Shown here one piece after another: positions 394-37,377 of a stretch of DNA of 52,067 bases. Both the position numbers and the translations under genes were made by a program. The stretch's first letter is position 1. Each line of letters starts with the position of its first letter. The DNA lies in contig CAZHFQ010000001.1 in NCBI GenBank assembly GCA_964531915.1, positions 1-52,067 of the forward strand. Direction: 5' to 3'. This DNA is from an uncultured Candidatus Saccharimonas sp. Its GTDB lineage: Bacteria > Patescibacteriota > Saccharimonadia > Saccharimonadales > Saccharimonadaceae. The notes beneath the pieces are model-generated. The model saw nothing but the letters and a program-made list of their open reading frames with translations, searched no databases and was not told the DNA's origin.

Positions 394-636
394 TATCCTT
401 ATTATAACCTAAGGACAAGCCGATTATGGAACTTGGCGCTTTTTTGAATTATCGATTTTACTACCCCAAATAGACGTACTCCACAATCACAGCAATTTTT
501 TTAGTTATATTCTGTTTTGTAAGTGCGGGGCTGAATACTTATCAAAATATTGCTCTAGAATTGATTTCGATATTTTTGCATATAGGACATACAGATATTG
601 GGCAGTTTCTATGGCTCGGCATATCGGTCTTGAACA

Positions 637-999
637 TTACTCAGATTGCAATTTTGAATCAAGTATATGAGCACGCCTTTTTGGAGACTCATCAACCTTA
701 TCGAGTGAATCTGCCAGCTTATATGCTATATAGTTAATCCCTTTTCTAGCAAGTTCATCTATACTCTCTACAATAACCTTCGCTTTTGTTTTCCCTGATT
801 GATCAGCCGTAACATCAATAACAAACGCTTTTTCTAGTTTTTAATGCCACACTATCCACACGTGTTTACCTTTTATCCATTCGGATGAATCATTATAAAC
901 CCTGCCAACTGCAACTGAAAATTGCTCATTTGGGAATAACACCTTAAGTTTTTCCCATAAAAGCACCGGACTGGACTGTATATATGCTATTTTGTCCCA
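637..999 (-). pseudogene. Gene fragment with no start codon and an in-frame TAA (841-843); function unknown
   Basis: Own translation gives ...LWEKLKVLFPNEQFSVAVGRVYNDSSEWIKGKHVWIVWH*KLEKAFVIDVTADQSGKTKAKVIVESIDELARKG...SE*. One frame stays open across a single stop and has no ATG/GTG upstream. The H-x-W...D-x-T spacing faintly recalls transglutaminase-like cores, which is weak evidence. Confidence 0.3.
963..976. repeat. Possible degenerate copy of the tRNA-Asn 3' end (candidate distal att remnant)
   Basis: GCACCGG-ACTGGAC compares with GCTCCGGCGACTGGAC of the tRNA at 14549-14564, matching 13 of 14 aligned positions with a 2-nt gap. Similarity ends at the same TGGAC as in the copy at 4742-4759. 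Confidence 0.3.
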
Positions 1000-1110
1000 T
1001 CATATAGGTCACGAACCATTTGCCGACAAGGCGTCAAAAATACAAAAGGAGAGATCAGTCTGACGCATATTTTCAAGAAATAGATGCCATAATTATGATA
1101 TAATTAAAGT

Positions 1111-1236
1111 ATGAGCGAAAGCGAAAAGAAAAAACATTTAATAAACAGTGTCGCCCGCAGCATGGAAGCCGAGGGGTTTAACTTTGGCACTGTAAAAAAG
1201 ACTCTCGAAAGGCAATTACAGCAAACAAAGGGCTAA
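1111..1236 (+). CDS. VbhA-like antitoxin of class I Fic proteins (41 aa, below the ORF-track cutoff)
   Basis: Own translation gives MSEKKKHLINSVARSMEAEGFNFGTVKKTLERQLQQTKG-type sequence (MSESEKKKHLINSVARSMEAEGFNFG...). It contains the inhibitory-helix motif [S/T]xxxE[G/N] as S-MEA-E-G. Its stop lies 3 nt before the fic ATG. Confidence 0.65.
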   Translation: MSESEKKKHLINSVARSMEAEGFNFGTVKKTLERQLQQTKG

Positions 1237-1239
1237 TTT

Positions 1240-1815
1240 ATGACGGACTATTTCGTCGATGGCGATGAGGTCATAGATAACAAACTAGGGATATCTGACC
1301 CGCAAAAACTTAAAGTTGCAGAACAAGATATCGTTTCCAAAAAGTCAGCTATTATTATGAGTGAAGTCTCGACGATATTTGATTTTGAATTCTTGCTACA
1401 TATTCACAAAATACTATTTGAAGATATCTATAATTTTGCTGGGGAAATTCGTACTGTTGATATTACTAATCCCGAAGAACATATTCCGTTTGCTTATGCA
1501 AAGTTTATAAAACCAGAAGCTAAACGAATATTCCACAAGCTAAAGTCAAAAGAATATCTTGTCGGGTTAAATAAGGGGGAGTTTGTCAAAGAGGTTACCA
1601 GTCTATCTGCCGAATTAAATGCACTACACCCTTTCCGAGACGGCAATGGACGCATAATACGTTTATTTCTAATACTATTAGCTGATCATGCTGGTTATCT
1701 ATTAGATTATAGTCAGGTTTCAGCAAAAGAGCTTATAGAGGCATATAAGCTCGCATTTGAAGGTGATCCAAAACCACTGCTGATAGTTTATGGGAAGGCG
1801 ACAACCAAAACTTGA
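1240..1815 (+). CDS. Fic/DOC family protein (AMPylation-type toxin)
   Basis: The canonical Fic motif HxFx(D/E)GNGRxxR is present as HPFRDGNGRIIR. Size is 191 aa, and a VbhA-like small ORF lies directly upstream. Confidence 0.9.
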   Translation: MTDYFVDGDEVIDNKLGISDPQKLKVAEQDIVSKKSAIIMSEVSTIFDFEFLLHIHKILFEDIYNFAGEIRTVDITNPEEHIPFAYAKFIKPEAKRIFHKLKSKEYLVGLNKGEFVKEVTSLSAELNALHPFRDGNGRIIRLFLILLADHAGYLLDYSQVSAKELIEAYKLAFEGDPKPLLIVYGKATTKT

Positions 1816-1985
1816 TAGCCCATATGCAAATAATAATTTAAGCATTCGAGTGACAAGTCAGGGGACACGGTCTACCTCTTTGGGTGCTTGGTTTGGCTCG
1901 CACTAGCAAACGAATTGCGAACTGCAAGTATTGACTATGATAAACACCAAATTATGCAAATAAAGGAAATTATTGGAAACATAGC

Positions 1986-2642
1986 TTAATTCATCCCTTT
2001 ACATAATTCTTCTGTAAGCAAATGAACTGTCGTTGAAGGGTTTGCATCTACAGGTTTTGTCTTATTTTTGATAGTTTCCTTCAACATCTGTCTAGCTCGT
2101 TTAACTGCTTCGGGATAATTATCTCTGATTCTATCAAAAATATCTTCACCGTGTTTATAGCCACCTAAATGCTTCTTAAGCTTTTCCTCAATATCACGCC
2201 TATGCAACGTTGTTGATACTACTTGAAAGTGAAGTAAAAACCAAAGTTCAAATGCATCATTTGAATAAGCTACCTTTATGCCATTTTGGTTTGCTAAATA
2301 CAATGCCTGATTAAATGTTTCTTTATCATTGGTTTTCTTTAAATCAACATCACGGTCAAAAACCACCCAAGTCTCATCACTGTTTTTATCGTAAGCAAAT
2401 AAAGGCGATTTGATTATGTCTTTTCTTAGTTTAATAGCCTTCTTAACAAGACTAATTTTTGAGTCTTGTTTATCAATAGGTTCAATGCGAGGTCCTGTTG
2501 TGCTACGAAAATGCTCAAAGTATTGAGCTTCCGTCTTACCTTCAGTAACAATCAAAAAAAACTTACGTTCGTCTATTACACCAGAAGGTCTTTTGCCACT
2601 AAGTGCAAACCGACTTCTAGTTTTGCTTTGACGATGAACCAT
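1986..2642 (-). CDS. RloB/AbiLii-like Toprim-type protein
   Basis: RloB-family signatures are FLIVTEGKTEAQYF, TWVVFDRDVD and AYSNDAFELWFLLHF. It lies 8 nt downstream of the ATPase gene on the same strand. Confidence 0.8.
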   Translation of the reverse strand: MVHRQSKTRSRFALSGKRPSGVIDERKFFLIVTEGKTEAQYFEHFRSTTGPRIEPIDKQDSKISLVKKAIKLRKDIIKSPLFAYDKNSDETWVVFDRDVDLKKTNDKETFNQALYLANQNGIKVAYSNDAFELWFLLHFQVVSTTLHRRDIEEKLKKHLGGYKHGEDIFDRIRDNYPEAVKRARQMLKETIKNKTKPVDANPSTTVHLLTEELCKGMN

Positions 2643-2650
2643 ACTGCTAG

Positions 2651-3949
2651 CTAACTTTCTTCAAACTTCAGAACTGGCACTGCACCAAATCTACCCTCTA
2701 GATAGCGTTTAGCGAGCTCATATTCTTTCTTTGTTTTATACTCTGACAGGCATCGCAATATTGAAGCTTCGTTTGCACATTTATCAGCGAACCAAATCTG
2801 GTCTCTTCGTAAGTCGAGCCTACTGCTCTGGGTATTTTTAGTAAGCAAAAATGTTTCGTGGCTCGTAAAGATAAGTTGACTACCGTGTTTATTTAACATG
2901 GGATTTTGAAAAAGCTCAACAATCTTCTTTGTAAGGAATGGGTGTAAACTTGACCCAAGTTCATCAAACACAACAGTCTCGCCATTATTTAAAGCATTGA
3001 GCAATATTACAGCCAAAGCAAAAATCTTCTGAGTGCCCAGTGACTCCTCTCTGAAGTTAAAGAAATGACTCCCTTCCACTTTATTGCCATCATTGTCGTA
3101 AACCGAGTGTTGTGACATAATTTGGTAGTTGAAACCCGAGCCCTTAGCCATAATTGACTTAAGCTCTTCTGGAATACCTGGTGGCAACTCATTGGCATTA
3201 ATTTGCGACCTGTCTATAGACACGTCATTTATGTCTATATCTGCCTTCCTAATGAATTCTATAACTTGTGCCTGAAGTTTCTTATCGTTAAAACAACGGT
3301 CTAACGCATAACTTAATAGGTTATTTGTGTCAGTGCCTTCTATCAGTTTTATTTGGCTACCCACTAATTCGAGTAACCTATGTGAATATTGTTCTGCAAG
3401 ATTTCCAAATACATTGACTGCTAGAGCCGTATTTAGAACACGTTTTACTAAAGGCTCAAGGTCACTCTTAACCGTCTTATCAAATGTGAAGTTGTTGCCA
3501 CTTCGCTCAAAGATAAGTCGTGAACGACGATTTTTTTGCGGTCTATCTATCAGTTCAAGCCATTCAGAAACCACGCCAAAACTATTAACCTCAAAGCCAT
3601 AGTTAAACTGCGAGACAGTATGCTCATCCCACAAAGATATCTCAAAGTGGATAGGCTCTTTACTGCTATTTGTATTTAATAAAAATGGCTGTAAAAGCGG
3701 GTGCTTATTAATAGGAAAATTCGTAGGATTTGCATTCAAAATCGAACTTACCATACAAACCAATGCTTTAATTACATTAGACTTTCCCCCAGCGTTTTGA
3801 CCAAATATACCAGCAACTGGTAAAATATTGTCGCCAAAAGCTGTGGTTGATATTGCGATGCCATCATCCTTTAGAGGCTCTGCTAATAGAGATAAGCTAG
3901 ACGCTTCCTTGAACGACCTATAGTTCTTAATAGTGAAATCTATAATCAT
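2651..3949 (-). CDS. AAA_21/ABC-type ATPase, AbiLi-like (RloA-like)
   Basis: The N-terminus is MIIDFTIKNYRSFK. Walker A is GQNAGGKSN, Walker B is VVFDELGSSLHP, and an H-loop-like FTSHE is present. The track ORF starts at GTG 3958, but ATG 3949 gives the family-typical N-terminus. Confidence 0.8.
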   Translation of the reverse strand: MIIDFTIKNYRSFKEASSLSLLAEPLKDDGIAISTTAFGDNILPVAGIFGQNAGGKSNVIKALVCMVSSILNANPTNFPINKHPLLQPFLLNTNSSKEPIHFEISLWDEHTVSQFNYGFEVNSFGVVSEWLELIDRPQKNRRSRLIFERSGNNFTFDKTVKSDLEPLVKRVLNTALAVNVFGNLAEQYSHRLLELVGSQIKLIEGTDTNNLLSYALDRCFNDKKLQAQVIEFIRKADIDINDVSIDRSQINANELPPGIPEELKSIMAKGSGFNYQIMSQHSVYDNDGNKVEGSHFFNFREESLGTQKIFALAVILLNALNNGETVVFDELGSSLHPFLTKKIVELFQNPMLNKHGSQLIFTSHETFLLTKNTQSSRLDLRRDQIWFADKCANEASILRCLSEYKTKKEYELAKRYLEGRFGAVPVLKFEES

Positions 3950-4450
3950 AGTGTCCACATTATAGCGTATTCTTTTATAAAAAACAATACTTTATGCGAA
4001 AAAATCGCATAATTTGTATAAATATACCAAGAAATAGTTATATTTTGCGATTTACAACTTACATAGCCAATTATTTTTCATAAATGTTAGTCATAGGGGG
4101 GTGGTCGCCCTATATCTTACGATTTTATACTCAGCCGTATATATACTCAATTTTTGGGGCTATTTTTTGACAGGCATTTTTTAATTTGGAAAATTATCTA
4201 TTTCTGGACCTAGTCTGCCCTGATATTTACTATCAACCATAAGCCCATTCTTGTCATAGATATGAGTCTTTGATTTAGTAATTTCTTTATCAAGAAAAGA
4301 TAAAAAATCTTCATATAGTCGACGTGTATCTATATGAACCACATTGCCTTTGAAAATATGCCCTATTATAATGCCACCAGCCGAAGCAGTGACAGACCAG
4401 CATATTGTTTTGTCGCCTTTCTTAATATGTATGAGTCTATCGCTGTGAGA

Positions 4451-4834
4451 ATTACTACCGCTGACTACGACAAATATGTAACAAAATACAAGGCAGAAAG
4501 AGATGAATTGGAATATAAATTGGTTGAATATACTAATAACGACAAGTCATTCATTTTAACCGCCGAACATCTGTTACGACTAGCTCAAAATGCCCAAACA
4601 ATCTTCCAAAGTTCGCAACCTGCTCAAAAGAACAAAATCCTGAAGACCCTACTTGCGAACTGCAAAATAGACCAAAAAAGGCTTCAACTTAACCTGTTAA
4701 AGCCCTTTGGTAGCATCATTGCTGACGCCAAATCTCAATCTTGGCTCCCCTTAGTGGACGTACTTCGCAACTTTGACTCAGGGCAAGTAAGTTTAGCCAC
4801 TACAGGCCTGGTTTCCACACGCCAAATAGATTAG
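4451..4834 (+). pseudogene. 3' remnant of a large serine recombinase (paralogue of 13107-14576)
   Basis: The track ORF 4334-4834 aligns colinearly with the C-terminal ~125 aa of the intact recombinase from residue ~40 onward. Matching pairs include ISEELYNKKFEEYRS / ITTADYDKYVTKYKA, HLLNLAKDAPKLF / HLLRLAQNAQTIF, KRSMINLVLSN / KNKILKTLLAN and NWLRRLD / SWLPLVD. The catalytic and zinc-ribbon domains are missing, and the stop codon of the intact copy is lost. Confidence 0.7.
4742..4759. repeat. Diverged copy of the tRNA-Asn 3' end (displaced att remnant)
   Basis: TGGCTCCCCTTAGTGGAC compares with TGGCTCCGGCGACTGGAC at 14547-14564. It sits at the same position relative to the recombinase C-terminus as in the intact copy. 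Confidence 0.55.
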
Positions 4835-6011
4835 TTGCTTCTGGCTTATCCGAAGAAACCGGTTGGATGTAAGCATGTATTTCGGAGCATTTGTTTGGTA
4901 TTTTTATAGCGTTTGACCTATCCCCAAGAGAAGTCCAAACAACGCTACCGCCAGCTATTTGCCACCCAAACCAGTATGCCTTGAAACCCTTATCCGCCGT
5001 GCCATCCGAATAGAACGCGACTGCTTTTAGGTTTACGTTGTCATCGACGATTGCTATGCGACGTATATCCTGTATGCCTCGTAATTTTGGTTTATATGAA
5101 ATCATTAATTCCTTAACTTGTCTCGCAGAAAGTCTTTGCGAATAATTATCTTTTCTAAGATAGGCATCGTCCTTGTAGAATATTACTTCTCCAGTACTTC
5201 TAAATACGGCAGGTATTTTAATGCGCATTATCATTTTTGACTTAAATGATATAAGTTGTATTCTCAATTTCGACACATCAATGTCAGTATTACTACTAAT
5301 ATAGTCAATCATTTTTGACCTGTTTGTATCAATATCCTTTGGCAAACCGAAGGCGAAAAATTTACCGATTATATGATCTGCAACGTCACTCGATAGAATA
5401 TCCCTCTCTTCCGCAATCCCAATATATAGGTCACCGCCATCAGTATTCGCAAATGCAGAAATAGTCTTAGCTATACCCTCCCTAAGATTAAAAGATTTTT
5501 TACATTCAATATGACCGTTTTCGTCGTTGGCAAGAGCAGTACTAAGACCGTTTTCATTATTTGATAATAGTTTATTTTTCACTTTTAAACTAACTAGACG
5601 AGGTATGTGATTAGCTGTTTCAAATCCACTAAGGCACTCTCTGATTATTTTTGAAACATCAGAGCTTTTCATATCACCAAGCAAGCCCACTCTTTGGCTA
5701 TATTTTAACTTCACCAACCTAGAAACAATAAATGTCTCTCTATGCATCCTTTCATAACGCAATTGATCTTCCGAATAATTTGAAAGATTTTTAATCTCAT
5801 CCAGTTCCTGAATAGCCTTCTTTACACTGTTACAATTATACTCTATGAAGCCGTCTATATTATTATTAATCAAAGCTTCGTCGGCATGTCGTCGTAACGA
5901 CGTAAAACCATCTTTAAACTCCACAATCCCATACTTTTGCTTTGATTTACTGACTGACATCTTATTATTTATATTAGCACTGAAATACCCTAAACTCATT
6001 ATAAGTTGCAC
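4800..6011 (-). CDS. Schlafen/AlbA_2-domain protein
   Basis: A central AlbA_2 signature is HIECKKSFNLREGIAKTISAFANTDGGDLYIGIAEERD. The flanking N- and C-terminal regions have no motif I recognise. The start may be Met18 (5960). Confidence 0.7.
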   Translation of the reverse strand: MQLIMSLGYFSANINNKMSVSKSKQKYGIVEFKDGFTSLRRHADEALINNNIDGFIEYNCNSVKKAIQELDEIKNLSNYSEDQLRYERMHRETFIVSRLVKLKYSQRVGLLGDMKSSDVSKIIRECLSGFETANHIPRLVSLKVKNKLLSNNENGLSTALANDENGHIECKKSFNLREGIAKTISAFANTDGGDLYIGIAEERDILSSDVADHIIGKFFAFGLPKDIDTNRSKMIDYISSNTDIDVSKLRIQLISFKSKMIMRIKIPAVFRSTGEVIFYKDDAYLRKDNYSQRLSARQVKELMISYKPKLRGIQDIRRIAIVDDNVNLKAVAFYSDGTADKGFKAYWFGWQIAGGSVVWTSLGDRSNAIKIPNKCSEIHAYIQPVSSDKPEATNLFGVWKPGL

Positions 6012-6064
6012 TGAAAGTGTTGTTGAAGTATGTCCTAATTATTTCGGTGTATTTTGCAAAAGAG

Positions 6065-7336
6065 CTAACTTTCGATTTTTTCGATAGAACTCAGTTCGGT
6101 AATTGGCTTAACGATTTCTTGAACTCTAGGGTTATATTCTCCAGTTAGGGTCGCTATTGCTGCTAACCCTATGTGATAGCCAAGGTTTACAGGAACTGCA
6201 TTTCCAATTTGTTTGTATTGTGAAGACATAGATCCCATAAATAACCATTCATCTGGAAATGTCTGAATACGCGCATATTCTCTTACATTTAATGGTCGAG
6301 TCTCTTCAGGATGACACCTTTCAGTTTGTTTTTGTCCTGGGTTACATGTCAGTGTTAGGCTTGGTTCATTCCAAGAAAGTCGTCGAGCCATTCCTGTCTT
6401 GCCTCCTCCTAGATAAAAACTACCCATCATGTATTCTTTTTGGATTTCTAAAGGCAGGTCTCTCCAATATCCACTTTCAGGCACTAAAGAGAGCACTTTC
6501 TTTTTCTTTTCAGAATATTCTTGCCCTTCCGATTTTGGCTTATCGCCGATAGCTTCTCTCAGTGATATCGTATAGTCTCTCTCACGTGGAAAAACAATAG
6601 GATTATCTATATCCTTGCGAACTGCAAATATTAATAATCTTTCTCGCTTCTGTGGAACATCAAGATATTGAGCACGTAAAACCTTATATGCCACATTGTA
6701 GCCCAAGCCCTGTAGGGTTTTGATCATTGCCCTAAGTGTCTTGCCTTCATCGTGCATAACAAGACCTCTTACATTCTCCCCGATAGCAATTTTAGGCTGC
6801 ACTTCTTTTATAGCTCGCGCGAACTGGTAGAATAGGGTTCCTCTAGTATCCGCGAAACCTCTACCTCGACCCGCATAACTAAAAGCCTGACAAGGGAATC
6901 CACCCTCTATTAGATCCACCCTTCCTTTATAATGACAAAAATCGATGCTTGCTACATCATCGTGAATGACGTTCCAATTTGGTTTATTCTTAATTAAAGT
7001 GGCAGCAGCATCTTTATTAAACTCATTAAGCATAATGTGCCTTACTCCTGCATTCTCAAGACCAAGGGCAGTTCCACCGGCTCCGGCGAATAAATCAATA
7101 GCTGTAAATGGTGATTTCTTCTTTGATTTTAGGATTTTATAGTTATTCCCTGTGTGTGTTCCATTAACTTTAGAATATATGCGCTGAACTTCATTAATAT
7201 TAAAAAGTCGATAATTTTTGTTTGAACGTATCGCCTTAATGAGACCCTTCTTTTCCCATCTGCGTATCGTATCTACCGATACGCCTATTTTTTTCGCCGC
7301 CTCTACAATCGTCAATAAGTCATCAATCATAACCAT
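6065..7336 (-). CDS. DNA (cytosine-5)-methyltransferase with an N-terminal MerR-type HTH
   Basis: C5-MTase motifs are FAGAGG (I), GGFPCQAFS (IV), ENV (VI), QKRERL (VIII) and GNAVP (X). The first ~55 aa (LTIVEAAKKIGVSVDTIRRWEKKGLIKAIRSNKNYRLF) form a MerR-like HTH. Confidence 0.9.
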   Translation of the reverse strand: MVMIDDLLTIVEAAKKIGVSVDTIRRWEKKGLIKAIRSNKNYRLFNINEVQRIYSKVNGTHTGNNYKILKSKKKSPFTAIDLFAGAGGTALGLENAGVRHIMLNEFNKDAAATLIKNKPNWNVIHDDVASIDFCHYKGRVDLIEGGFPCQAFSYAGRGRGFADTRGTLFYQFARAIKEVQPKIAIGENVRGLVMHDEGKTLRAMIKTLQGLGYNVAYKVLRAQYLDVPQKRERLLIFAVRKDIDNPIVFPRERDYTISLREAIGDKPKSEGQEYSEKKKKVLSLVPESGYWRDLPLEIQKEYMMGSFYLGGGKTGMARRLSWNEPSLTLTCNPGQKQTERCHPEETRPLNVREYARIQTFPDEWLFMGSMSSQYKQIGNAVPVNLGYHIGLAAIATLTGEYNPRVQEIVKPITELSSIEKIES

Positions 7337-7344
7337 ATTATTGC

Positions 7345-7373
7345 AGTAACCATTGCATAATGCAAGGGTTACT
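7345..7373. promoter_or_regulatory. 29-bp near-perfect palindrome between the REase stop and the MTase start (candidate operator or RNA hairpin)
   Basis: The sequence is AGTAACCATTGCAT-A-ATGCAAGGGTTACT, with arms complementary at 13 of 14 positions. A GGTTACC site also occurs at 8105-8111 in the region upstream of the REase gene. Confidence 0.4.
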
Positions 7374-8076
7374 ATGACAATATATATGCACGGTTAAATA
7401 ATTCTATAAATACTGTGGAGTTACGAAGCTCAGCTTCCTCTACATTTAAGATACTAGCAAGAATAGTGGGTAAAACTTCATATAGCTTCTTAAGAGCATC
7501 CTCGTCTCCTGAAGCTAGCGCGTAAAAGCTTTTCCCGTCGATTTTCGCAATATCACTCCTTCGTGGTCTTGGTGTCCCTCTTTCGGAAGGTGTGAACGGT
7601 AATTCATATGGACGCGGCGTCTTAGGTATAACTTCCACAAGATATGCTTTTTTAATATTATCTCCGCTATAGTCTAAGTGTCTCTGTAGGTTATCATACA
7701 CGCTCAAGGCGCTTCTAGCATTCATTGTGTTATGTTTATTTTTGACTTCAGCAATAACCTTCAATGACTCATTTTTAACATCGTAGCTACCACCTCTTCC
7801 TGCGTTGTCCCAACCAGGCATATAACCTAGGATGTCCTGATGAAAATCACCAAGAGCGTTTGAAAATGCTTTTTGAATTTGCCGTGATTTTTCTTGCTCC
7901 ATCCACTCATCGGTCGATACACCCTGACGAGCAGCGTCAACCTGTGCAGAAAACGGGTCAATTACGTTCCTATACGGGTTTTTTTCCACTCTATTCTGGG
8001 CGGATAATGCCGCATTAACTAGAGTTCTCGTTGCTTGATATAAACTATCATCATTTATGAATGGTAAAAGTGACAT
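7372..8076 (-). CDS. Putative type II restriction endonuclease (PD-(D/E)xK; possibly Eco47II-like family)
   Basis: It lies directly upstream of the C5-MTase on the same strand with a 35-nt gap. A D...E-x-K-like core is SYDVKNESLKVIAEVKNKHNTMN. The 234-aa size fits small type IIP enzymes. The family assignment is from memory only. Confidence 0.5.
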   Translation of the reverse strand: MSLLPFINDDSLYQATRTLVNAALSAQNRVEKNPYRNVIDPFSAQVDAARQGVSTDEWMEQEKSRQIQKAFSNALGDFHQDILGYMPGWDNAGRGGSYDVKNESLKVIAEVKNKHNTMNARSALSVYDNLQRHLDYSGDNIKKAYLVEVIPKTPRPYELPFTPSERGTPRPRRSDIAKIDGKSFYALASGDEDALKKLYEVLPTILASILNVEEAELRNSTVFIELFNRAYILS

Positions 8077-8166
8077 ATATTATTTACTTCTTCTTATACT
8101 ACAAGGTTACCATAGAAAACAAATTATAGGCTATATAAGGCTGGGATATTATCACAACTTTCTATT

Positions 8167-8922
8167 CTATCTGGTAACCGTGAAGGCGCTTGTGTCACGC
8201 TTGAGTTTATCATATTGCCCGGGTTGACTTTGGAAGAAGCGTTTAATTAACTTAAGGTCTCTTTTAGATATTTTTCGCTCACCAGCTTTAATACTTATTA
8301 AATCAAGATTGTCTACACTAATTCGTGCATTAATACCCCTCTGTTTCGACAGAACATGAAAATGTGCAGGTTGGTGATCGCCGGGGAATATATCAATACT
8401 AAAATCTCCTATATTGCATACATTGTATTTGCGTACCGTCTCTTTGCCATTATCATCTAAATAATGTGAGTTTAAATAGGCATTTAGCGCTTCGCGTATT
8501 CCCATATTTTCTGGCTCGTTGAGAAGCATTTTCATATCGTTCAGCGCCGACAGTAGATCAACATTTATCAATTCTTTATACTGATCAAAATATGGGTTTA
8601 TTTCACCAATCTTATATTTTTGCCTTTGTTCGTCATTGTCAAAATGTACCGCAACTATGCCTACGGCGATTTCTCCGTCGTTCAGCTTAAAATCGACGGC
8701 GCTCAGAACAGCTCCTTGATCTCCCGCAGTTTCATCGTGGTTAAATCGCATTGGGAGTAACTTATTTTTTATTTGCCTAACGACATCAACCACCGCCTTT
8801 TTCGAAAAACGCTCCCCATGTTTATCTAAATGAGACGTCACAACGATCGCCACCTCAAAACGTTCGTCGTTATTTATAAACGGAAAACCAACACAGTGAG
8901 GATTTGCCACTAGATCATTCAT
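8167..8922 (-). CDS. Fusion protein: unknown N-terminal domain (~170 aa) plus C-terminal DUF4160
   Basis: The C-terminal IDIFPGDHQPAHFHVLSKQRGINARISVDNLDLIS...LKLIKRF matches the DUF4160 pattern (DHxPxHFHV). The N-terminal part (TSHLDKHGERFSKKAV...LPMRFNHDE...) has no secure match. Confidence 0.6.
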   Translation of the reverse strand: MNDLVANPHCVGFPFINNDERFEVAIVVTSHLDKHGERFSKKAVVDVVRQIKNKLLPMRFNHDETAGDQGAVLSAVDFKLNDGEIAVGIVAVHFDNDEQRQKYKIGEINPYFDQYKELINVDLLSALNDMKMLLNEPENMGIREALNAYLNSHYLDDNGKETVRKYNVCNIGDFSIDIFPGDHQPAHFHVLSKQRGINARISVDNLDLISIKAGERKISKRDLKLIKRFFQSQPGQYDKLKRDTSAFTVTR

Positions 8923-8924
8923 AC

Positions 8925-10199
8925 TTAATTGTTGTCTTTAAACATTGAAACGTACGGATGATTATACCAGTCTCCATATACTTCATGGACTAAATCCAGA
9001 TGCTTTTTAGTCATTTTATTCTCAATGTCGTCAAGGTATTCCAAAAAATCCTTCTTCCTGCTGAGAGAGAAAATATTATCCGAATAGCCGAGTTTAGTCC
9101 TTATTGGTTCGTCACAGAGTCTGGTTTGAAACTCATTGTCAATAAACATCGCGTCACAGTAAGGTAGCAATGAAGATATAAACTCCACATCATTTAATGT
9201 CCCTTTATTATAAGGCTTTTTTCTATCATTTGAAGCATCACGAGCCATAGAAGCATATAGCATTGATGATATTTTTATATGAGGGACTTCTTTTATTTGG
9301 GTTGAAAAATATTCATTTATTTTTATTGTCGCTTTCTTAGAGTCAAGCCCCTCGCTTTTTAGTATTTGGAACAGTTGGATAAGAGTAACCTCTCTTTCGG
9401 TAGGCAAAATACTCTCAAGAGAATATGGGTTTTTACGTCGATTATCTACCATTTGCTCTAGAAGCCCCCAAAAACTCTTACCTACTGCAGATTGCTCTTC
9501 CTGTAGCCAATAGTTGAACCCCTTGCCTTTTTCAGATTTCCATCTTTCAAAAAGAGGGAGTAGCACATCATCAATACCCTTTCGTTCAAGGATAATTTGA
9601 TTAACTAAATCTGAACCGTAATCCGGGAGGCTAACTGAAAAGATCAGCCTATCACTCCAATCACTGAGTCGACCGTATATTACTCTACTCACATCCAACA
9701 CTATCGTGTTCATGCCAAGCCACGACTTAAAGTCATTTTCAATCTGGAAACGCTGTATTGTCCCATTTGTATAAAATCTTATCCCATTAGAAAAATGCTC
9801 TGTGATACGCTTAAGAGCATCCCTGTTTTCAGCCGTAAGTGTTTCATCCCTATGGGTCGAAGACGAAGGACATACTATCAACTGCAGTTTTGATAACCTG
9901 TCTAACTTTTCAAATAAAGATTTATAAAATGAAGTGTCTGTACCAGATCTAACTCTAATGTTTGGATTTATTGATTTCATCATATTACTTAAAACGAACT
10001 GATCGAGATAAATAATCTTTCTTTTTAACTTTGGTAATTCATACCCTTGTGTATGCCAGCAAGCCCTACAACGACGTGTATAGCCTGCACCCACACTTAA
10101 TAAAACACCGTATTCATTTTTCCTACATTTTGGGCACTTCTTGTAAGGTGGCTTGATAAATATACGAGGATCAATTGTTATAGTCTTTTTATCACTCAC
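8925..10199 (-). CDS. Hypothetical protein with an N-terminal CxxC...CxxC zinc ribbon
   Basis: CPKCRKNEYGVLLSVGAGYTRRCRACWH is followed by ~370 aa with conserved-looking acidic motifs (IIYLDQF, STHRDET, CDAMFIDNEF). It lies 2 nt from the downstream gene, so they form an operon. Confidence 0.6.
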   Translation of the reverse strand: MSDKKTITIDPRIFIKPPYKKCPKCRKNEYGVLLSVGAGYTRRCRACWHTQGYELPKLKRKIIYLDQFVLSNMMKSINPNIRVRSGTDTSFYKSLFEKLDRLSKLQLIVCPSSSTHRDETLTAENRDALKRITEHFSNGIRFYTNGTIQRFQIENDFKSWLGMNTIVLDVSRVIYGRLSDWSDRLIFSVSLPDYGSDLVNQIILERKGIDDVLLPLFERWKSEKGKGFNYWLQEEQSAVGKSFWGLLEQMVDNRRKNPYSLESILPTEREVTLIQLFQILKSEGLDSKKATIKINEYFSTQIKEVPHIKISSMLYASMARDASNDRKKPYNKGTLNDVEFISSLLPYCDAMFIDNEFQTRLCDEPIRTKLGYSDNIFSLSRKKDFLEYLDDIENKMTKKHLDLVHEVYGDWYNHPYVSMFKDNN

Positions 10200-10253
10200 A
10201 ATACCCTAATATTACATCAGGGGTAGTTATAAATCTATCTATTCTGTCAAAAA

Positions 10254-11261
10254 CTAGTACCCAAGAGAGTCTCTAAAAAACTGTTGAACTTCGTCTGTCG
10301 TAAAAACATAATTAGACTCATCTTGTGGGTATCTAAGCTCGACAGGCTCCTGTAGCTCCTGAGGTGCAATATTATCCGCGTTCTTGCGCAATATCCACTT
10401 ATCATATAGTGATAACTGGCTCATAGCTATTTCTTTACTGGTTTTTTCTTGTGTTGCCTTTGCCTCTTCGTATTTAGAAATTATTGGGTTACACTTACTC
10501 CGAACGCCGTCCATAAACTTATTAGTCGTATCCTCTAATCTTTGTTCCTCCTCGTCAGTAATTTCAGAGTAAGTAGTTTTATAGTCATAATGGCTTAACT
10601 TAAACTCACCGATACGATAACTCATAGTAATCCACTCAACTCTGGTTGAGCCGTTTTCGACACTATATCTGCATTTATCATACTCATCGAAGTTCTTTTC
10701 CATATATGACACCGCCGAGCTGTTGTCGCTAAGAGACTCTGGGCTAACTGAACCTTTTATCCCATGTAAACCAGTTAATATAACCAAAATGACAATGATT
10801 GCAAGACCTATCGGCTTAAGGATTTCTGCTTTCATACCATCCCACTTCGTTGCAGGCTTACTGCTTACGTGTGTCTTCCGCCAAACAACTAGACCTATAA
10901 TACTTATTGTTTTTGGATGTTTACCATATTTATTCGCGTCTTCCTTTCCAGCTTCAAATAACAGCCATAGTCCAAGAATGAAGTTAACAAATGGTACAAA
11001 ATAACCGATTAACCACCAGCCACTCATGCCCAAGTCGTGCAGACGTCGTATAACGCAAAATGAATGATAAACCCACCATAAAAGAGCGATTAGGAAAAAC
11101 AATGGGCTGGACGATGTGTCGTCGAGACCGGAAAAACCAAACGTCCCCAATACTCCACATAACAACCCAAATAAGATCATCGTGACAAATAACGATACTA
11201 TTGATGTCAATATAAAAGTGGATCTATTAAATCGTCCTTCTTCTAAACCAAGTATTTTCAT
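10254..11261 (-). CDS. DUF805-family membrane protein with a C-terminal soluble extension
   Basis: The DUF805 hallmark is RRLHDLGMSGWWLIGYFVPFVNFILGLWLLFEAGKEDANKYG, set among several hydrophobic helices. An extra TM and a ~170-aa tail follow. A strong SD (AGAGGGGG) precedes the ATG. Confidence 0.7.
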   Translation of the reverse strand: MKILGLEEGRFNRSTFILTSIVSLFVTMILFGLLCGVLGTFGFSGLDDTSSSPLFFLIALLWWVYHSFCVIRRLHDLGMSGWWLIGYFVPFVNFILGLWLLFEAGKEDANKYGKHPKTISIIGLVVWRKTHVSSKPATKWDGMKAEILKPIGLAIIVILVILTGLHGIKGSVSPESLSDNSSAVSYMEKNFDEYDKCRYSVENGSTRVEWITMSYRIGEFKLSHYDYKTTYSEITDEEEQRLEDTTNKFMDGVRSKCNPIISKYEEAKATQEKTSKEIAMSQLSLYDKWILRKNADNIAPQELQEPVELRYPQDESNYVFTTDEVQQFFRDSLGY

Positions 11262-11294
11262 TTGAACCCCCTCTATCGTTTAGGACTGTCCAAT

Positions 11295-11321
11295 AAAAAA
11301 GGACAACCTCTCTAGGTTGTC
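11295..11321 (-). terminator. Intrinsic-terminator-like hairpin 34 nt upstream of the DUF805 gene start (possible attenuator)
   Basis: On the minus strand the sequence reads GACAACCT-AGAG-AGGTTGTC followed by C-TTTTTT. That is an 8-bp stem, a 4-nt loop and a U6 tail, lying inside a 550-nt ORF-free region. Confidence 0.45.
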
Positions 11322-11810
11322 TACACCATCACAAGATTTGCATCCTATGCTTTCGAGAAGTTGCCCATTTATGGATGCAAACTCATCGAAAATCGACTAG
11401 TTTTAATATTATGATGATGTAGACTATTCCATAATAACTTAAACAGAGGAGATATTAAACTACTGTCTATTGATAGGCTGCAAAAATATCATAAATCCGT
11501 AGACGACTTAGAGTGAGAGAGTGAATATAAGAAGAGGGGGTGGGGGGGTGTAATTGTGCGTGAATAGAACCGTAGTTGTTATGTGTAGATAAATAAAAAA
11601 AGGGGGTAGTTGCATGCACTACGACCAATTAACCCACTCCGACTAAATAGACCTGCAACGGTAGTAACTGTGGTGCATAAAGAACTTCATCTTCGACACT
11701 ATTTATACATATTTTGGTACAATTTTGTTCACCCAATACACATCCTAATACTACGTAAACCTAATTAGGTAATTATAATTATACCTTTTTGCTATATAAT
11801 AACCTCAGCT

Positions 11811-12554
11811 ATGGACCCAAAGCAGTTTCTTCATGAGCGGGATATTATGTATGTGGTTAACAAACTACACTCGGCTTATATAGAAATAGCTCCACCTTTC
11901 AAAAAACATACATACCGCCTGTCGGAAAACCGATCGATAGACGCCCCTTCCTTTAAAGAACAGCGCGAAATATTAAAATCGTTAAGAGAACAATCGATAA
12001 TTGAAGTGTCAAAATGTTTAAACAAATTAGATAAGCCGACCTCATTCGAAAAAGCATGGGTATACGAATACAAACGGACTAAAAATAACAAGCTTAAGGA
12101 TTATTACTGGGATTTGTTATTAAAGCGCCAAGAAGGTCTATATAACCACGATGCTTTGATAGAAAAAGGTACTCTTGTCCTACACATAGAGGGGCAATAC
12201 ATATACGTAGTGTACCCTTACCATGCTCTCCGTATTAATCGAAAACCTTTAAAAAATGGCGGGTTCCCCCAGATATTATTCGAACATTTGATAAATAAGT
12301 CCAATGGCGAAACGGTTACTCAAGAAAGTCTAGATTATACGACTTCACGCAGTTTTATCGATATTGTTAATAGTGTAGGTTTTACGGGGATTATACGCTC
12401 CAAGTTCATACCTGAGGTAACTAAAAAATCCATAAGACTGTTGCGCGAGGTCGAAATGAATGTAAAAGACTCTACTAAACTGTACCGACAATTGATCGAA
12501 GACCCTTTTAATAAAGAATTGTACGAAAACTACCTCGAGAATATAGATAACTAA
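11811..12554 (+). CDS. Hypothetical protein (island-borne, upstream of the recombinase)
   Basis: A 247-aa ORF with no motif I recognise, on the same strand as the recombinase module. Confidence 0.5.
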   Translation: MDPKQFLHERDIMYVVNKLHSAYIEIAPPFKKHTYRLSENRSIDAPSFKEQREILKSLREQSIIEVSKCLNKLDKPTSFEKAWVYEYKRTKNNKLKDYYWDLLLKRQEGLYNHDALIEKGTLVLHIEGQYIYVVYPYHALRINRKPLKNGGFPQILFEHLINKSNGETVTQESLDYTTSRSFIDIVNSVGFTGIIRSKFIPEVTKKSIRLLREVEMNVKDSTKLYRQLIEDPFNKELYENYLENIDN

Positions 12555-12618
12555 ACACGAATAACGCGATACAACTCGTTACGCGTCTTAGGGGTGGTTT
12601 ACAGGTTATTATCAATGC

Positions 12619-12933
12619 ATGGTCGATGACAATAAACTATACATGAATACAATCAAAGACGAGGCAAAGTCTAAGATTGATCCTTTTTATGAAGAGAAAA
12701 TAGCCTCATATTTATCAGATAAGTTAAATGCGGAAGATGAAATTAGTCTAAAGTATTACCGTATTCTTGCTCATCATTTGACTAAACCGCAAATCGATCG
12801 TTTAGTCGGCACAGCTGTGGAGCTTGGGAGAAACCCCGCTCGATACTTCTGTGTTATTAGCAAAATCGAGCTTGAAAAAGCAAGGTACAAAAGGAGGGGG
12901 TGTGAAAACCAACCAACTCTCGACCCTGATTGA
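12619..12933 (+). CDS. Hypothetical small protein (possible DNA-binding or recombination-directionality candidate)
   Basis: A 104-aa ORF immediately upstream of the recombinase. The C-terminal helical segment is LTKPQIDRLVGTAVELGRNPARYFCVISKIELEKAR. The functional guess rests on position only. Confidence 0.35.
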   Translation: MVDDNKLYMNTIKDEAKSKIDPFYEEKIASYLSDKLNAEDEISLKYYRILAHHLTKPQIDRLVGTAVELGRNPARYFCVISKIELEKARYKRRGCENQPTLDPD

Positions 12934-13033
12934 GTACTTTGAATTACTTATAAAGATTGAAGCCCAAGATGAGAAAGATGTATAATAGAAGGGCTCCCCA
13001 ATATATACGAGATATTTTTAATTTCTGCTCTTA

Positions 13034-13087
13034 ATGGGCGGTTGTGCCAGAAAGTCTTGTATTTTTTGGGGAGCCACAACCGTCCAT
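13034..13087. promoter_or_regulatory. Inverted repeat in front of the recombinase gene
   Basis: ATGGGCGGTTGTG (13034-13046) pairs with CACAACCGTCCAT (13075-13087) at 12 of 13 positions. A second pair is GGGCTCCCC (12991-12999) with GGGGAGCC (13068-13075). It ends 20 nt before the ATG at 13107. Confidence 0.35.
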
Positions 13088-13106
13088 TTTAAGTAGGAGA
13101 AGTTAT

Positions 13107-14576
13107 ATGAAAGCATTTTTAATAGCAAGAGTGTCCACCGATGAGCAGGCAAACTCACTCCCTGCACAAGTTTACAAACTTAAGGACTACGCTCTCCGTA
13201 ATGATTACAGCTACGAACTAACTGAGATAAAAGAAAGTGCCTATAAGGGCAGCCGCGAAGATTTTAAACTAATCATAGAAAAAATTAAGTCCTGTAGTGA
13301 ATTAGTTATTGTAGTATTCGATAAAGTTGATCGCTACACGCGCGATATTAGCTCAGACATCGTCAAGCAGCTCGAAACTTTATATCGTATGGGGAAAATT
13401 GAGCTTCACTTCCCATCAGACAACCTAACAATTACTAAAAACTCATCAGCTCCTGATTTGATGCGCCTAGGACTTGGTATGGTATTGGCAAAATATTACT
13501 CAGACGCAATAAGCGATAATGTAAAAAGGCGTAACGAACAAAAAAGACGCGATGGAGAATGGTGCGGTAGAGCGCCAATTGGTTACATTAATAAAGATAG
13601 GCCGGACGGTAAAAAATGGGTTGAGATTGATCCAATATACTCGCAAGCAGTCCGCGAAGCTTATGAATTATATGCGAGTGGCAATTCTTCATTACGCGAA
13701 ATCGCAAAAGAATGGAGTACCCAATGCGGGCACAAAGTAGGCTCTAGTAAAATAGAGCAAGTTCTCAAAAACCCATTCTATTACGGAGAAATGCGCATAA
13801 AAGGAGAGTTGTACCCCCATAAGTATGAGCGCCTAATAACCAGAGGCCTCTTCGAACAAGTTAAGGCAGTACGAGAGGGTTATTCCGTAAAGCCTCATCG
13901 TTGGGGCGGACTACCCTATTCATTTCGCGGTCTTATTTACTGTGCTGATTGTGGTTGTCGCATTACTTTCGAAAAAAAGAAAAAAGGTAAATATATTTAT
14001 GGGCATTGCACTCAAGCAAAAGGGAAACATAACGCGAAGTATGTGCCCGAAAATGAATTGATTAAACAGATGATGGTAATCTTCAAAAAGGTTCAGATAC
14101 CTGGATTGGCCTACCAACAGGTTAGCGAAGCCCTGCGTGCTTCTCATGAGGATAAAAAGCGCACATACCACGCTCAAGCGCGATCTATTGACACTGAAAT
14201 TAAAAAATATCAAACAAGGACAGAAAAGGTTTATGAAGATTATTTGGACGAGAAGATCTCCGAAGAGCTATATAACAAGAAGTTCGAGGAGTACCGATCA
14301 AAAGTTAAACTTCTTCAGGAACGCCGTTTAAATATCGAACTTACTGAAGATACTTACTACTCAAGTGTTTCCCATCTGTTAAATCTTGCAAAAGACGCAC
14401 CAAAGTTATTCATAAAGGCAAATCAAGAGCAAAAACGGTCAATGATCAATTTAGTACTTTCGAACTTACGGCTAGACGGTAATCAACTGAGGTGGGAATA
14501 CAAAAAGCCATTCGAAATGATGGCTTTTTGTAACAAATCTTCAAATTGGCTCCGGCGACTGGACTCGAACCAGTAA
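13107..14576 (+). CDS. Large serine recombinase (integrase)
   Basis: MKAFLIARVSTDEQ is the resolvase-type catalytic Ser motif, with DRYTRD, the recombinase domain (GRAPIGY) and a zinc ribbon (CADCGC...GHC) plus a coiled-coil C-terminus. An SD (AGGAGA) precedes ATG 13107, so the GTG 13044 extension in the track is unlikely. The last 30 nt overlap tRNA-Asn. Confidence 0.9.
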   Translation: MKAFLIARVSTDEQANSLPAQVYKLKDYALRNDYSYELTEIKESAYKGSREDFKLIIEKIKSCSELVIVVFDKVDRYTRDISSDIVKQLETLYRMGKIELHFPSDNLTITKNSSAPDLMRLGLGMVLAKYYSDAISDNVKRRNEQKRRDGEWCGRAPIGYINKDRPDGKKWVEIDPIYSQAVREAYELYASGNSSLREIAKEWSTQCGHKVGSSKIEQVLKNPFYYGEMRIKGELYPHKYERLITRGLFEQVKAVREGYSVKPHRWGGLPYSFRGLIYCADCGCRITFEKKKKGKYIYGHCTQAKGKHNAKYVPENELIKQMMVIFKKVQIPGLAYQQVSEALRASHEDKKRTYHAQARSIDTEIKKYQTRTEKVYEDYLDEKISEELYNKKFEEYRSKVKLLQERRLNIELTEDTYYSSVSHLLNLAKDAPKLFIKANQEQKRSMINLVLSNLRLDGNQLRWEYKKPFEMMAFCNKSSNWLRRLDSNQ

Positions 14577-14621
14577 CCTCGAAGTTAACAGCTTCTTGCT
14601 CCACCATTGAGCTACGCCGGA
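14547..14621 (-). tRNA. tRNA-Asn (anticodon GTT), CCA encoded
   Basis: Hand-folded cloverleaf: UCCGGCG-UA-GCUC-AAUGGUG-GAGC-A-AGAAG-CUGUUAA-CUUCG-AGGUU-ACUGG-UUCGAGU-CCAGU-CGCCGGA-G-CCA. It is 75 nt with a 7-bp acceptor stem, a canonical T-loop and a GUU anticodon. Confidence 0.9.
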
Positions 14622-14860
14622 ATAATTGTTTTTATGAACTCTCGCCCTCTACCTGATTTGAGACCTTTTTCTCTCTTCAGAGCTTCCGAACGAGTGGTAA
14701 CTAATTCTTCGTGTATTAGCTCCCATTCGCCAGGAAATCTTGATGTATATGATTTAAATGTATGATTATTATGCTTTATTAAACGTCTTTTTATATCATC
14801 GGTCTGACCAATGTAATACTTATTCGAAGTCTTATTGTAAATAACATACACGTGGTACAT
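14612..14860 (-). CDS. GIY-YIG nuclease superfamily protein (UPF0213/YhbQ-like, 82 aa)
   Basis: MYHVYVIYNKTSNKYYIGQTDDIKRRLIKHN...ALKREKGLKSGRGRE shows the GIY-YIG, R and E motifs. The ATG at 14860 is preceded by GGTGGAG. The TAG stop lies inside the tRNA (nt 8-10). Confidence 0.85.
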   Translation of the reverse strand: MYHVYVIYNKTSNKYYIGQTDDIKRRLIKHNNHTFKSYTSRFPGEWELIHEELVTTRSEALKREKGLKSGRGREFIKTIIPA

Positions 14861-14864
14861 ATTA

Positions 14865-14917
14865 TCTTGCTCCACCTTCGCCTTCGCTAGATAGCGAACG
14901 GCGAAGAGCTACGCCGG
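14865..14917 (-). repeat. Partial duplicate of the tRNA-Asn 5' portion (nt 2-13 and 17-28) interrupted by a 29-nt palindrome
   Basis: On the minus strand the sequence is CCGGCGTAGCTC-[TTCGCCGTTCGCTATCTAGCGAAGGCGAA]-GGTGGAGCAAGA. Both 12-mers are identical to the tRNA (14609-14620 and 14594-14605). Confidence 0.8.
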
Positions 14918-36168: not shown

Positions 36169-37377
36169 ATGTGGCCAGACTTCAATGTATCTGTTATTAT
36201 AGCTTATATGTCGAGAAAGAAACAAACCATATTCTTTGATGGGCTGGGGTTAGTCGAGGGTCATTTTAGTGGAGTTGGACAATATATCCTAGGCATACTA
36301 CGAGGTATAGATAAAATTATTGATGACAAAAAAAACATGCAGGAACCATACCACAGAGTGAAGGTAATTATCCCCTATGACACTGTAGGTAAGTTCAAAT
36401 CATTCAAATTTAGAAACATCGAGTATAAACCAGCGCCAATACCATTTAGAATCATGAGCGTCTTATGGTCAAGAAATAAATTACCACCTATTGATTTATT
36501 TTGTGGAAAAGGCTTTTACGTTTTCCCTCGGTTCGTATCAATGCCTTTGCTTTTTAGTAAATCAGCCATTGTTATATATGACATATCGTTCGAACTTTGC
36601 CGTGAATTTTCTAATGAGGAAAATGCCAAGTTTCTTTCTAGTTCAGTTAAAAAGTCTATCAACTCTAGTAATAAAATAATAACTATTTCCAAAAATGCAA
36701 AAAAAGAAATAGTTAATTTTTATAATGTAAACAATAACGACGTTGCTGTTGCAACCCCTGCGGCTGACCCATATTTTTTATATCGTAGGAGCAATTCAGA
36801 GATTGAAAACATAAAACGTAAATATGGTATTGAAGGTGATTATATTCTTGCCCTTTCTAATCTTGAGCCACGAAAAAATTTGGGCTCATTAGTTGAAGCC
36901 TTCTGCAGACTACCGAAAAAACTAACTAATCAAAATTCTTTATTATTAGTTGGGGTTAATGGCTGGAAAACAGATCAGTTATTCGATGATATTGTAGATA
37001 AAGTTAAGGAAGGATATAAAATCATTCGCCCTTCTCAATACGTAAGCGATGAGGATAAGGCTGCAATTATATCTGGTGCAAAAGTCTTGGTCTACCCAAG
37101 CCACTACGAAGGTTTTGGCATGCCCCCTCTTGAAGCATTATCATGCGGCACACCTGTTATAACAGCCGACAACTCCTCGCTCCCCGAAGTAGTCGGTGAG
37201 GCCAAATTTATGGTTAATAGTCACGACATCAACGGAATCAAAAATAAGATAATCGAGGTACTAAATAAACCTAGTATTCAAAACCTCGCAATCACAACTG
37301 GGCCTGAAAGAGCCAAACTATTCTCGTGGGAAAAGAGTGCTCAAACGTTTATTGACATAGCCGAGGGAAAGATATGA
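36169..37377 (+). CDS. GT4 glycosyltransferase
   Basis: The signature is YEGFGMPPLEALSCGTPVITADNSSLPEVVGEA. The start may be Met14 (36208). A 4-nt overlap links it to the next gene. Confidence 0.8.
   Translation: MWPDFNVSVIIAYMSRKKQTIFFDGLGLVEGHFSGVGQYILGILRGIDKIIDDKKNMQEPYHRVKVIIPYDTVGKFKSFKFRNIEYKPAPIPFRIMSVLWSRNKLPPIDLFCGKGFYVFPRFVSMPLLFSKSAIVIYDISFELCREFSNEENAKFLSSSVKKSINSSNKIITISKNAKKEIVNFYNVNNNDVAVATPAADPYFLYRRSNSEIENIKRKYGIEGDYILALSNLEPRKNLGSLVEAFCRLPKKLTNQNSLLLVGVNGWKTDQLFDDIVDKVKEGYKIIRPSQYVSDEDKAAIISGAKVLVYPSHYEGFGMPPLEALSCGTPVITADNSSLPEVVGEAKFMVNSHDINGIKNKIIEVLNKPSIQNLAITTGPERAKLFSWEKSAQTFIDIAEGKI

Follow-up and report, generated by a model that had tools for sequence, protein, structure and literature searches.

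A probable serine-recombinase element at the tip of a tRNA-Asn gene in a Candidatus Saccharimonas genome, with a conserved site at its far boundary

Introduction

Tyrosine integrases classically insert their elements at tRNA genes. Here we describe a locus in an uncultured Candidatus Saccharimonas species at which a large serine recombinase (LSR) probably inserted a ~9.8-kb element at the 3' tip of a tRNA-Asn gene. The stretch of DNA analysed (52,067 nt, hereafter the window) is the whole of contig CAZHFQ010000001.1 (C1) of assembly GCA_964531915.1, a genome of 757 kb in 57 contigs with an estimated completeness of 95%. C1 begins within older layers of the stack of islands described below.

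Serine-recombinase elements at tRNAs have been described for the Ralstonia filamentous phage phiRSM, at the 3' end of tRNA-Ser, and for actinomycete integrative and conjugative elements (AICEs) of Mycobacterium, at tRNA-Leu, and Ghinet et al. called such integration rare in 2011 (PMC3218068). In 2015, the Islander authors stated that no serine integrases at tRNA genes were known (PMC4383910). The locus described here resembles phiRSM in having a serine recombinase at a tRNA 3' end, and some relatives of its LSR have a neighbouring replication gene of the G2P type, a feature of filamentous phages. The recombinase of phiRSM is of the small, resolvase-like kind and not an LSR. The reports on phiRSM and the AICEs concern single targets; the family to which our LSR belongs covers at least five tRNA species, and in 55 of 70 genes the gene end overlaps a tRNA.

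Among LSRs, the integrases of phiC31, Bxb1, A118 and TP901-1 and the enzymes TnpX/TndX have the same domain order, and their catalytic Ser and Arg columns are conserved here. The reaction that we propose would also be alike, with attP and attB recombining through a short common core flanked by arms of ~20-25 bp. Unlike those systems, this locus has the 3' end of a tRNA gene as its putative target, and one attP arm would be the stop-less end of the enzyme's own gene, with a C-terminal tail that differs between the integrated and excised states. Furthermore, the outer target arm is not conserved, the symmetry is weak, and related enzymes appear to use different tRNAs with the same element-side arm.

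Islander-type islands and the tycheposons of Prochlorococcus share with this locus an integrase gene beside an intact tRNA and older elements that are pushed outward and leave integrase fragments, a tandem accretion described for tycheposons by Hackl et al.; tycheposons also resemble it in carrying adaptive or defensive cargo in a streamlined genome (bioRxiv 10.1101/2020.12.28.424599; PMC4383910). Unlike tyrosine-integrase islands, the integrase here is a serine recombinase by Pfam, and unlike Islander-type islands the locus has no long tRNA direct repeat (6-7 nt in common) and ends distally in a conserved non-tRNA arm, not in a tRNA fragment. In SSV1-type integrases the attachment site lies within the integrase frame, and integration alters the gene product and splits the gene in two. 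The proposed attachment site here likewise lies in the integrase frame, but only the last few residues would be swapped and the gene stays whole. Integrons resemble what is seen in relatives of this locus, where short, co-oriented, mostly single-ORF (open reading frame) units share one conserved site and a fixed entry point; this is a likeness of layout alone, and unlike integrons these loci have no tyrosine IntI, no hairpin fold of the site and a tRNA end as the entry point. Our search of the literature on serine recombinases at tRNAs in Saccharibacteria and Patescibacteria returned nothing specific, and we found no description of a Saccharibacteria-wide LSR family on tRNA ends, of a stop-less gene end as an attachment arm or of a conserved element-side arm.

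Results

ARAGORN finds a single tRNA in the window, tRNA-Asn(gtt), which lies on the minus strand at 14547-14621, has an encoded CCA and is the probable integration target. It is the sole tRNA-Asn gene among the 40 tRNAs of the genome, and its sequence is shared at 100% identity by the tRNA-Asn of 13 other genomes in the genus. Directly beside it, at one end of the island, is an intact LSR gene on the plus strand (ORF 13044-14576), whose likeliest start is the ATG at 13107, as in its homologues, giving a protein of 489 aa (13107-14576). Its domain content places the enzyme among the large serine recombinases: a Resolvase domain (PF00239, E 1e-15, residues 25-173) is followed by a Recombinase domain (PF07508, E 6.5e-11) and a zinc ribbon (Zn_ribbon_recom, PF13408, E 3.4e-7), and residues ~350-430 include, by eye, many heptad-like charged residues. 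An alignment of 14 family members shows no variation at R29, S31, D93, R97 and R100, which include the catalytic Ser and Arg positions, or at the cysteines C300, C303 and C322, and the enzyme has homologues at 51-69% identity.

The LSR gene has no stop codon of its own ahead of tRNA-Asn. Its final nine codons, WLRRLDSNQ, and the stop (14547-14576) are the antisense of the 3' terminal 30 nt of the tRNA. An initial annotation of this DNA had proposed a serine-recombinase element at tRNA-Asn with the recombinase tail read from the tRNA, and both the domains and the overlap bear this out; its count of ten tRNA-encoded codons was one too many, as the codon for N is adjacent to the tRNA and not within it. 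The tail RRLDSNQ would be host-encoded and should change on excision. Two more serine recombinases in this genome also end in tRNA genes, and all three overlap tRNA 3' ends: one (C4:32410-34242) reads through the whole of tRNA-Ser(cga), and the other (C2:33902-35578) has a 22-nt overlap with tRNA-Pro(tgg), read in a different frame. None of this genome's serine recombinase genes has a stop codon ahead of its tRNA.

We surveyed 80 homologous loci from public Saccharibacteria genomes, 70 of which have a complete 3' end. The LSR terminates within a convergent tRNA in 55 of the 70 (Asn 38, Gly 7, Gln 4, Asp 3, Arg 3), usually with an overlap of 42 or 30 nt, and the CCA of the tRNA is read in frame as Trp in 54 of these 55. 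The residues past this Trp are dictated by whichever tRNA is present. LSR relatives chosen by kinship show the same overlap, and in these genes too no stop codon comes ahead of the tRNA. Full-length LSRs that lie away from a tRNA have recurrent tails directly after W-L, namely PLVD(A/V)LR, TTIE(E/D)VIT or xLQVTE, and judged by these tails there are at least three site families. At three loci (L147, L160 and L165, near 4450-4530 of each), LSRs from separate clades share one ending, a ~40-nt 3' half of tRNA-Asn that is broken off at the anticodon loop, after which comes a common non-tRNA sequence; these LSRs look as if they had been displaced by another class of integrase that uses the anticodon loop.

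The far boundary of the island holds the C-terminal stub of an older LSR of a different lineage (4364-4746, plus strand), whose catalytic N-terminus is gone. The stub lies within ORF 4334-4834, the frame of which is open throughout. A tblastn search with a 516-aa full-length relative places the homology at ~4364-4786 (residues 377-512, 62.7% identity), and in a search of genomes the ORF is closest to the C-termini of full-length LSRs from other Saccharimonadales families (61-78% identity, E to 1e-54). BLASTP gives 26% identity (E 3e-10) to residues 404-510 of the resident LSR. Since the frame is open, the low identity to the resident enzyme points to divergence of lineages, not erosion, and a decayed copy of the resident LSR can be ruled out as the source of the stub, whose nearest relatives are LSRs of other families. 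Thus, the recombinase C-terminal relic that the initial annotation had placed at 4451-4759 is real, but it reaches back to ~4364. The annotation had looked to a profile search of 4451-4834 for this homology; it emerged from BLASTP, the genome search and tblastn, and neither that segment nor the stub ORF has a significant Pfam match because the region lies past the Pfam domains.

The stub is on the same strand as the resident LSR and ends at the junction core. Since the far boundary bears the C-terminus of an older related recombinase, elements appear to have been stacked at tRNA-Asn, as the initial annotation had also argued. When the pre-insertion sequence is rebuilt, the older recombinase ends SQSWLRRLDSNQ-stop, matching intact relatives. 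Tandem parallels with two intact LSRs occur in two other contigs: in JAAXIO010000026.1 the one has a PLVD-like tail and the second, 12.6 kb on, overlaps tRNA-Asn, and in G147:C2 the second LSR lies at a distance of 10.7 kb, where the contig stops at its W-L codons. A further observation concerns stubs as a group. Among independent stubs (window 4364-4746; L061, L065, L067, L069, L072, L079, L086, L088), the N-terminal breakpoints fall at residues ~369-415 of the 516-aa relative in all eight that are not cut by a contig end. Such a narrow range is not expected from random decay, and something may favour keeping the last ~100-140 codons.

The left junction (attL; 4742-4773, plus strand) consists of a core, TGGCTC(C), and then a conserved element-side arm, here called P', and was recognised by an exact match to a 24-nt pattern and by a position weight matrix (PWM). 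With up to two mismatches, the pattern is present in 49 of 401 genomes of the order, often as multiple same-strand copies on one contig; a reversed control gave 0. Conservation has a sharp left edge exactly at TGG, is high from +1 to ~+30, and is essentially nil to the left or beyond +33. The PWM, built from 42 site copies and scanned over the whole genome, scores 51.5 bits at 4742 (shuffles, 13.4 at most). The initial annotation had read the 18-mer at 4741-4758 as a decayed tRNA end sharing 14 of 18 bases with the tRNA-Asn 18-mer; the actual count is 13 of 18, which as a DNA match alone would not stand out genome-wide. Both the 24-nt match and the position of the 18-mer at the end of the homologous frame are highly non-random. 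No tRNA among the 40 of this genome ends in AAGGGGAGCCA, and we rejected them as the source of the 18-mer.

The PLVD tail is found behind the window stub, behind a related LSR of genome G158 and on contig P0053, whose LSR belongs to the resident LSR's own clade. The DNA of this tail is near-identical over ~33 nt and unrelated further on; being common to different LSR lineages, it therefore does not travel with the recombinase gene. No significant single-strand fold of the site, such as the hairpin of integron attC, was detected (z-scores -1.3 to +2.3), which fits a duplex site. In seven of eight larger stretches (13-20 kb) around sites, a tRNA-Asn lies 0.5-14 kb off on the expected side and in the expected orientation, and the eighth has an LSR with a tRNA-like tail in place of tRNA-Asn. 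The site also closes LSR-bearing elements of ~10 kb (G115), ~9.3 kb (G306) and, at tRNA-Gln, ~5.8 kb (G109), and in G283 it lies 8.8 kb past a tRNA-Asn bearing only an LSR stub. From its positions in these genomes, the site is a marker of the far end of insertions at tRNA-Asn, tRNA-Gln and tRNA-Trp.

In two relatives, integron-like arrays lie directly downstream of tRNA-Asn (L126, G168:C2:41000-60999; L127, G413:C1:62000-81999). They hold nine and five same-strand site copies, respectively, spaced 0.4-4.7 kb, with no LSR within the 20-kb stretch. The units are co-oriented and often single ORFs, and in most of them the ORF starts ~45-85 nt past the site. Read in the tRNA sense, most of these sites are followed by AGCATAAGCAC..., which looks like the opening half of a terminator hairpin and is found after the tRNA as well. 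Elsewhere in the Saccharimonas genome, the third-best PWM match (17.8 bits) is at C8:5771 on the minus strand, and no tRNA was found on C8. At C4:35683-36938, the genuine tRNA-Arg (36862-36938) has two look-alikes of the tRNA-Arg(gcg) 3' end upstream of it. Both start with TGGTACACC..., one at ~35695 and the other at ~36663, a GTGCTTAT(G/T)CT-type motif comes before each of them, and they may be a small stack at a second tRNA.

Comparison of the two junctions bears on where the exchange took place. The left junction equals the tRNA through TGGCTCC only, the conserved arm setting in from position 8. The first six bases of the site read TGGCTC beside tRNA-Asn, TGGCTG beside tRNA-Gln (four of the five loci of that class) and TGGCAG beside tRNA-Trp (one locus). 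In each class these six bases are those of the 3' end of that tRNA, and site and tRNA differ from position 7, which would place the exchange at positions 5-6 or to their left. The simplest explanation for the covariation of these two positions is that they form a two-nucleotide core matched between the partners. From the junction comparison and the covariation, we infer that the recombination core at the right junction (attR) is TGGCTC at 14547-14552 (plus strand), the antisense of tRNA nt 71-76, and that the crossover dinucleotide is most likely TC at 14551-14552 (about tRNA nt 71-72). The element would then supply the tRNA with no more than its last 4-6 nt, made up of CCA, the discriminator and up to two further bases. 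The initial annotation had set the crossover after TGGAC and had the element bring an 18-30-nt tRNA 3' end; neither proposal agrees with divergence after position 6-7, with positions 5-6 that covary with the adjacent tRNA or with a contribution of 4-6 nt. A displaced tRNA fragment is typically seen as a direct repeat of at least 15 nt, and here only the 7 nt of TGGCTCC are in common.

Other insertions at tRNA-Asn are built differently. Islands of 2-5 kb in three genus relatives (G075, L055; G006, L056; G021, L057) have 24-26-nt direct repeats of the tRNA 3' end, which stop after TCGAAC(CA), and no recombinase gene inside. Judged by the ends of these repeats, the crossover in such islands differs from the position proposed for the LSR elements.

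Between the two junctions, the genes with matches in Pfam and PADLOC are accessory or defence genes. A Schlafen/AlbA_2-domain protein (4800-6011, minus strand; PF04326, E 4e-14) is followed by a type II restriction-modification (R-M) pair (6065-8076, minus strand; PADLOC MTase_II and REase_II), which by Pfam and PADLOC comprises a C5 cytosine methyltransferase fused to a MerR-type helix-turn-helix (HTH) domain (6065-7336) and an Eco47II-family endonuclease (7372-8076). Three genes at 8167-11261 on the minus strand, assigned by Pfam and without PADLOC matches, encode a DUF4160-containing protein, a 424-aa protein of no family and a DUF805 membrane protein. On the plus strand, two genes of 247 aa and 104 aa without a Pfam family (11811-12933) lie directly upstream of the LSR; homologues of these genes also precede the LSR in several of its closest relatives (L134, L136, L157, L177, L208), and the pair is probably part of the element's core module. 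A filamentous-phage-type replication gene (REP_ORF2-G2P) lies directly upstream of related LSRs at two loci (L093:5425-6270, L095:254-961). This window's element has no G2P-type Rep, by Pfam and by comparison with the two upstream genes, of which the 247-aa gene was the candidate tested; both proved unrelated.

The initial annotation had called all cargo between the two junctions accessory, which agrees with these assignments and with the DNA downstream of tRNA-Asn, which is different in all 30 genus relatives compared. Empty tRNA-Asn sites, to which it had also pointed, were found in none of these 30, and no left flank common to them could be placed in this genome. On the other side of the target, a GIY-YIG nuclease gene of 87 aa (14612-14875, minus strand; Pfam E 7e-16) abuts the 5' side of tRNA-Asn.

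Beyond the far boundary are what appear to be older layers. An older unit at 1894-4741 (plus strand; PWM and PADLOC) comprises a weak P'-like site (1894-1925), AbiLii (1986-2642, minus strand; PADLOC E 4e-25), AbiLi (2651-3958, minus strand; PADLOC E 8e-83) and the LSR stub. Its site scores 18.4 bits, the second best in the genome (shuffles up to 13.4). A possible oldest unit at 458-1893 (plus strand), with a tentative boundary, consists of a weak P'-like site (458-489; 15.3 bits), which has no TGG core ahead of it, and a Fic-family gene (1240-1815; PADLOC PDC-S04, E 3e-56). The matches at 4742, 1894 and 458 are three of the four best in the genome and all on the same strand, which suggests three stacked units, 458-1893, 1894-4741 and 4742-14552, each with a defence system. 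A third candidate tRNA-end remnant, at 963-976, was rejected, as it has neither a core nor a PWM score. The window itself has one strong and two weak sites, and clear arrays occur only in relatives.

Discussion

We propose that ~4748-14552 is one ~9.8-kb integrative element, with an R-M system, accessory genes and its own LSR, inserted at the tip of tRNA-Asn beside an older element, and we give this reading a probability of roughly 0.7. It builds on the gene identities, the tRNA overlap, the homology and, for the site, how far it is conserved, where it occurs and how it covaries with the tRNA, and it proposes an exact crossover, the resident LSR as maker of both junctions and an order of events. 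The LSR would have joined the element's attP to tRNA-Asn at the very 3' end of the gene, with the exchange falling within its last ~6 nt (CCA, discriminator and nt 72-71), most likely at TC 14551-14552. One attP arm would be the stop-less 3' coding end of the LSR itself, and the other the conserved ~25-nt sequence, placed by integration at the far boundary (4748-4773). Measured from the proposed centre, an arm of ~25 nt agrees with the half-sites of known LSR attP sequences. With the element integrated, the LSR frame would run into the tRNA antisense and end RRLDSNQ-stop, and in the excised circle the protein would end PLVDVLRNF... instead, in a frame open to 4834. The element would have landed beside an earlier one of a related lineage, whose recombinase likewise ended in the tRNA; that older gene would now end in the newcomer's arm, its catalytic part lost. 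The weaker sites at 1894 and 458 would be still older layers, and the outcome a stacked defence island (Fic; AbiL; R-M).

Several points weigh against this proposal. No excised circle, empty site or read-level junction was seen, and the recombination is deduced from sequence: relatives are lacking in IMG/VR, a metagenome scan for junctions of the LSR end with the site gave two loci, neither of them informative, and the 5.9-kb contig P0053 has no terminal overlap. In canonical LSR sites both half-sites can be recognised; here the predicted attP arms are only weakly inverted-symmetric (9 of 22, counted by eye), and conservation is lacking in the target's outer arm. The covariation is based on few independent Gln loci and one Trp locus, and the junctions at 1894 and 458 are weak. 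Moreover, the 24-26-nt or ~40-nt tRNA-Asn repeats at other insertions imply that several crossover positions are in use. Finally, many site copies belong to arrays whose short units have no LSR, and the genomes concerned have no cognate LSR of the tRNA-Asn type; another enzyme or process might therefore act on the site.

These arrays also lend something to the alternative that fares best, although we consider it rather unlikely: a composite island in which the recombinase element is shorter than 9.8 kb, the 4742 site comes from an earlier LSR-less unit bounded by the same site, as in the arrays of relatives, and an unrecognised junction lies within 4766-14546, for example in the ORF-free stretch 11262-11810. 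The cargo is on the minus strand and the LSR module on the plus strand with this 550-nt gap between them, and with at least three site families known, an unrecognised type could escape detection. Against a composite origin, the PWM scan finds no second site in 4766-14546, no plus-strand TGGCTC there continues in a site-like manner, and the LSR elements of G115 and G306 are of similar size, at 9-10 kb.

It is more improbable still that the conserved site is not a serine-recombinase substrate but a transcript-level or other cis element, for instance a tRNA-end mimic with a terminator, so that its position behind the stub would be incidental and the element's left boundary elsewhere. Such a function would suit the terminator-like hairpin that often follows the site in the tRNA sense, as it follows the tRNA in several relatives, as well as the arrays with no LSR nearby and the lack of conservation in the outer arm. 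It would not account for a site that takes the place of the tRNA precisely at W-L in full-length LSR genes of several lineages, whose first six bases track the neighbouring tRNA, that shows no significant fold and that stands at the distal end of LSR elements.

Least probable, we think, is the crossover after TGGAC, at the border of T-stem and T-loop, with an element that brought its own 18-30-nt tRNA 3' end and an 18-mer at 4741-4758 left as the decayed tRNA end of an older element: the G075, G006 and G021 islands do have repeats ending after TCGAAC, the tails of P0052 and L187 depart from the tRNA sequence after the T-loop, and both 18-mers carry TGGAC in the same register, but the acceptor part of the 18-mer (AAGGGGA), where four of its five differences from the tRNA lie, is unable to pair with the tRNA 5' strand (TCCGGCG), its supposedly decayed bases are conserved in 49 genomes of many families and recur behind three unrelated LSR lineages, conservation runs 12 nt past TGGAC into non-tRNA sequence, and the window has no other copy of the tRNA 3' 24 nt (up to three mismatches).

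The wider family invites a further reading, which we hold to be possible though doubtful. Saccharibacteria would have a gene-capture system in which the tRNA 3' end is a fixed entry site, the conserved ~25-nt arm marks captured units, and LSRs drive the process, their target being switched by little more than the central dinucleotide (TC, TG, AG). The outcome would be defence and accessory genes arrayed in integron-like fashion within genomes smaller than 1 Mb. A switch of target by a few bases would be possible since the target arm otherwise consists of the near-universal T-arm. Under this reading, the recurrent C-terminal stubs of ~100-140 aa might be kept for a function, such as holding or blocking the site.

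Serine integrases at tRNAs have been reported as rare exceptions; here the association is the trait of a whole family, with an unusual site layout in which the exchange would occur at the tRNA tip, one arm would be the enzyme's stop-less end, and the other arm is common to enzymes that use different tRNAs. The family offers a natural series of related serine integrases whose choice of target has seemingly been altered by few bases, which is relevant to integrase engineering, and the conserved arm is a simple signature for mapping mobile DNA in Saccharibacteria metagenome bins. Such a layout would also help to explain how tiny, host-dependent bacteria may keep a replaceable defence island without risk to an essential single-copy tRNA.

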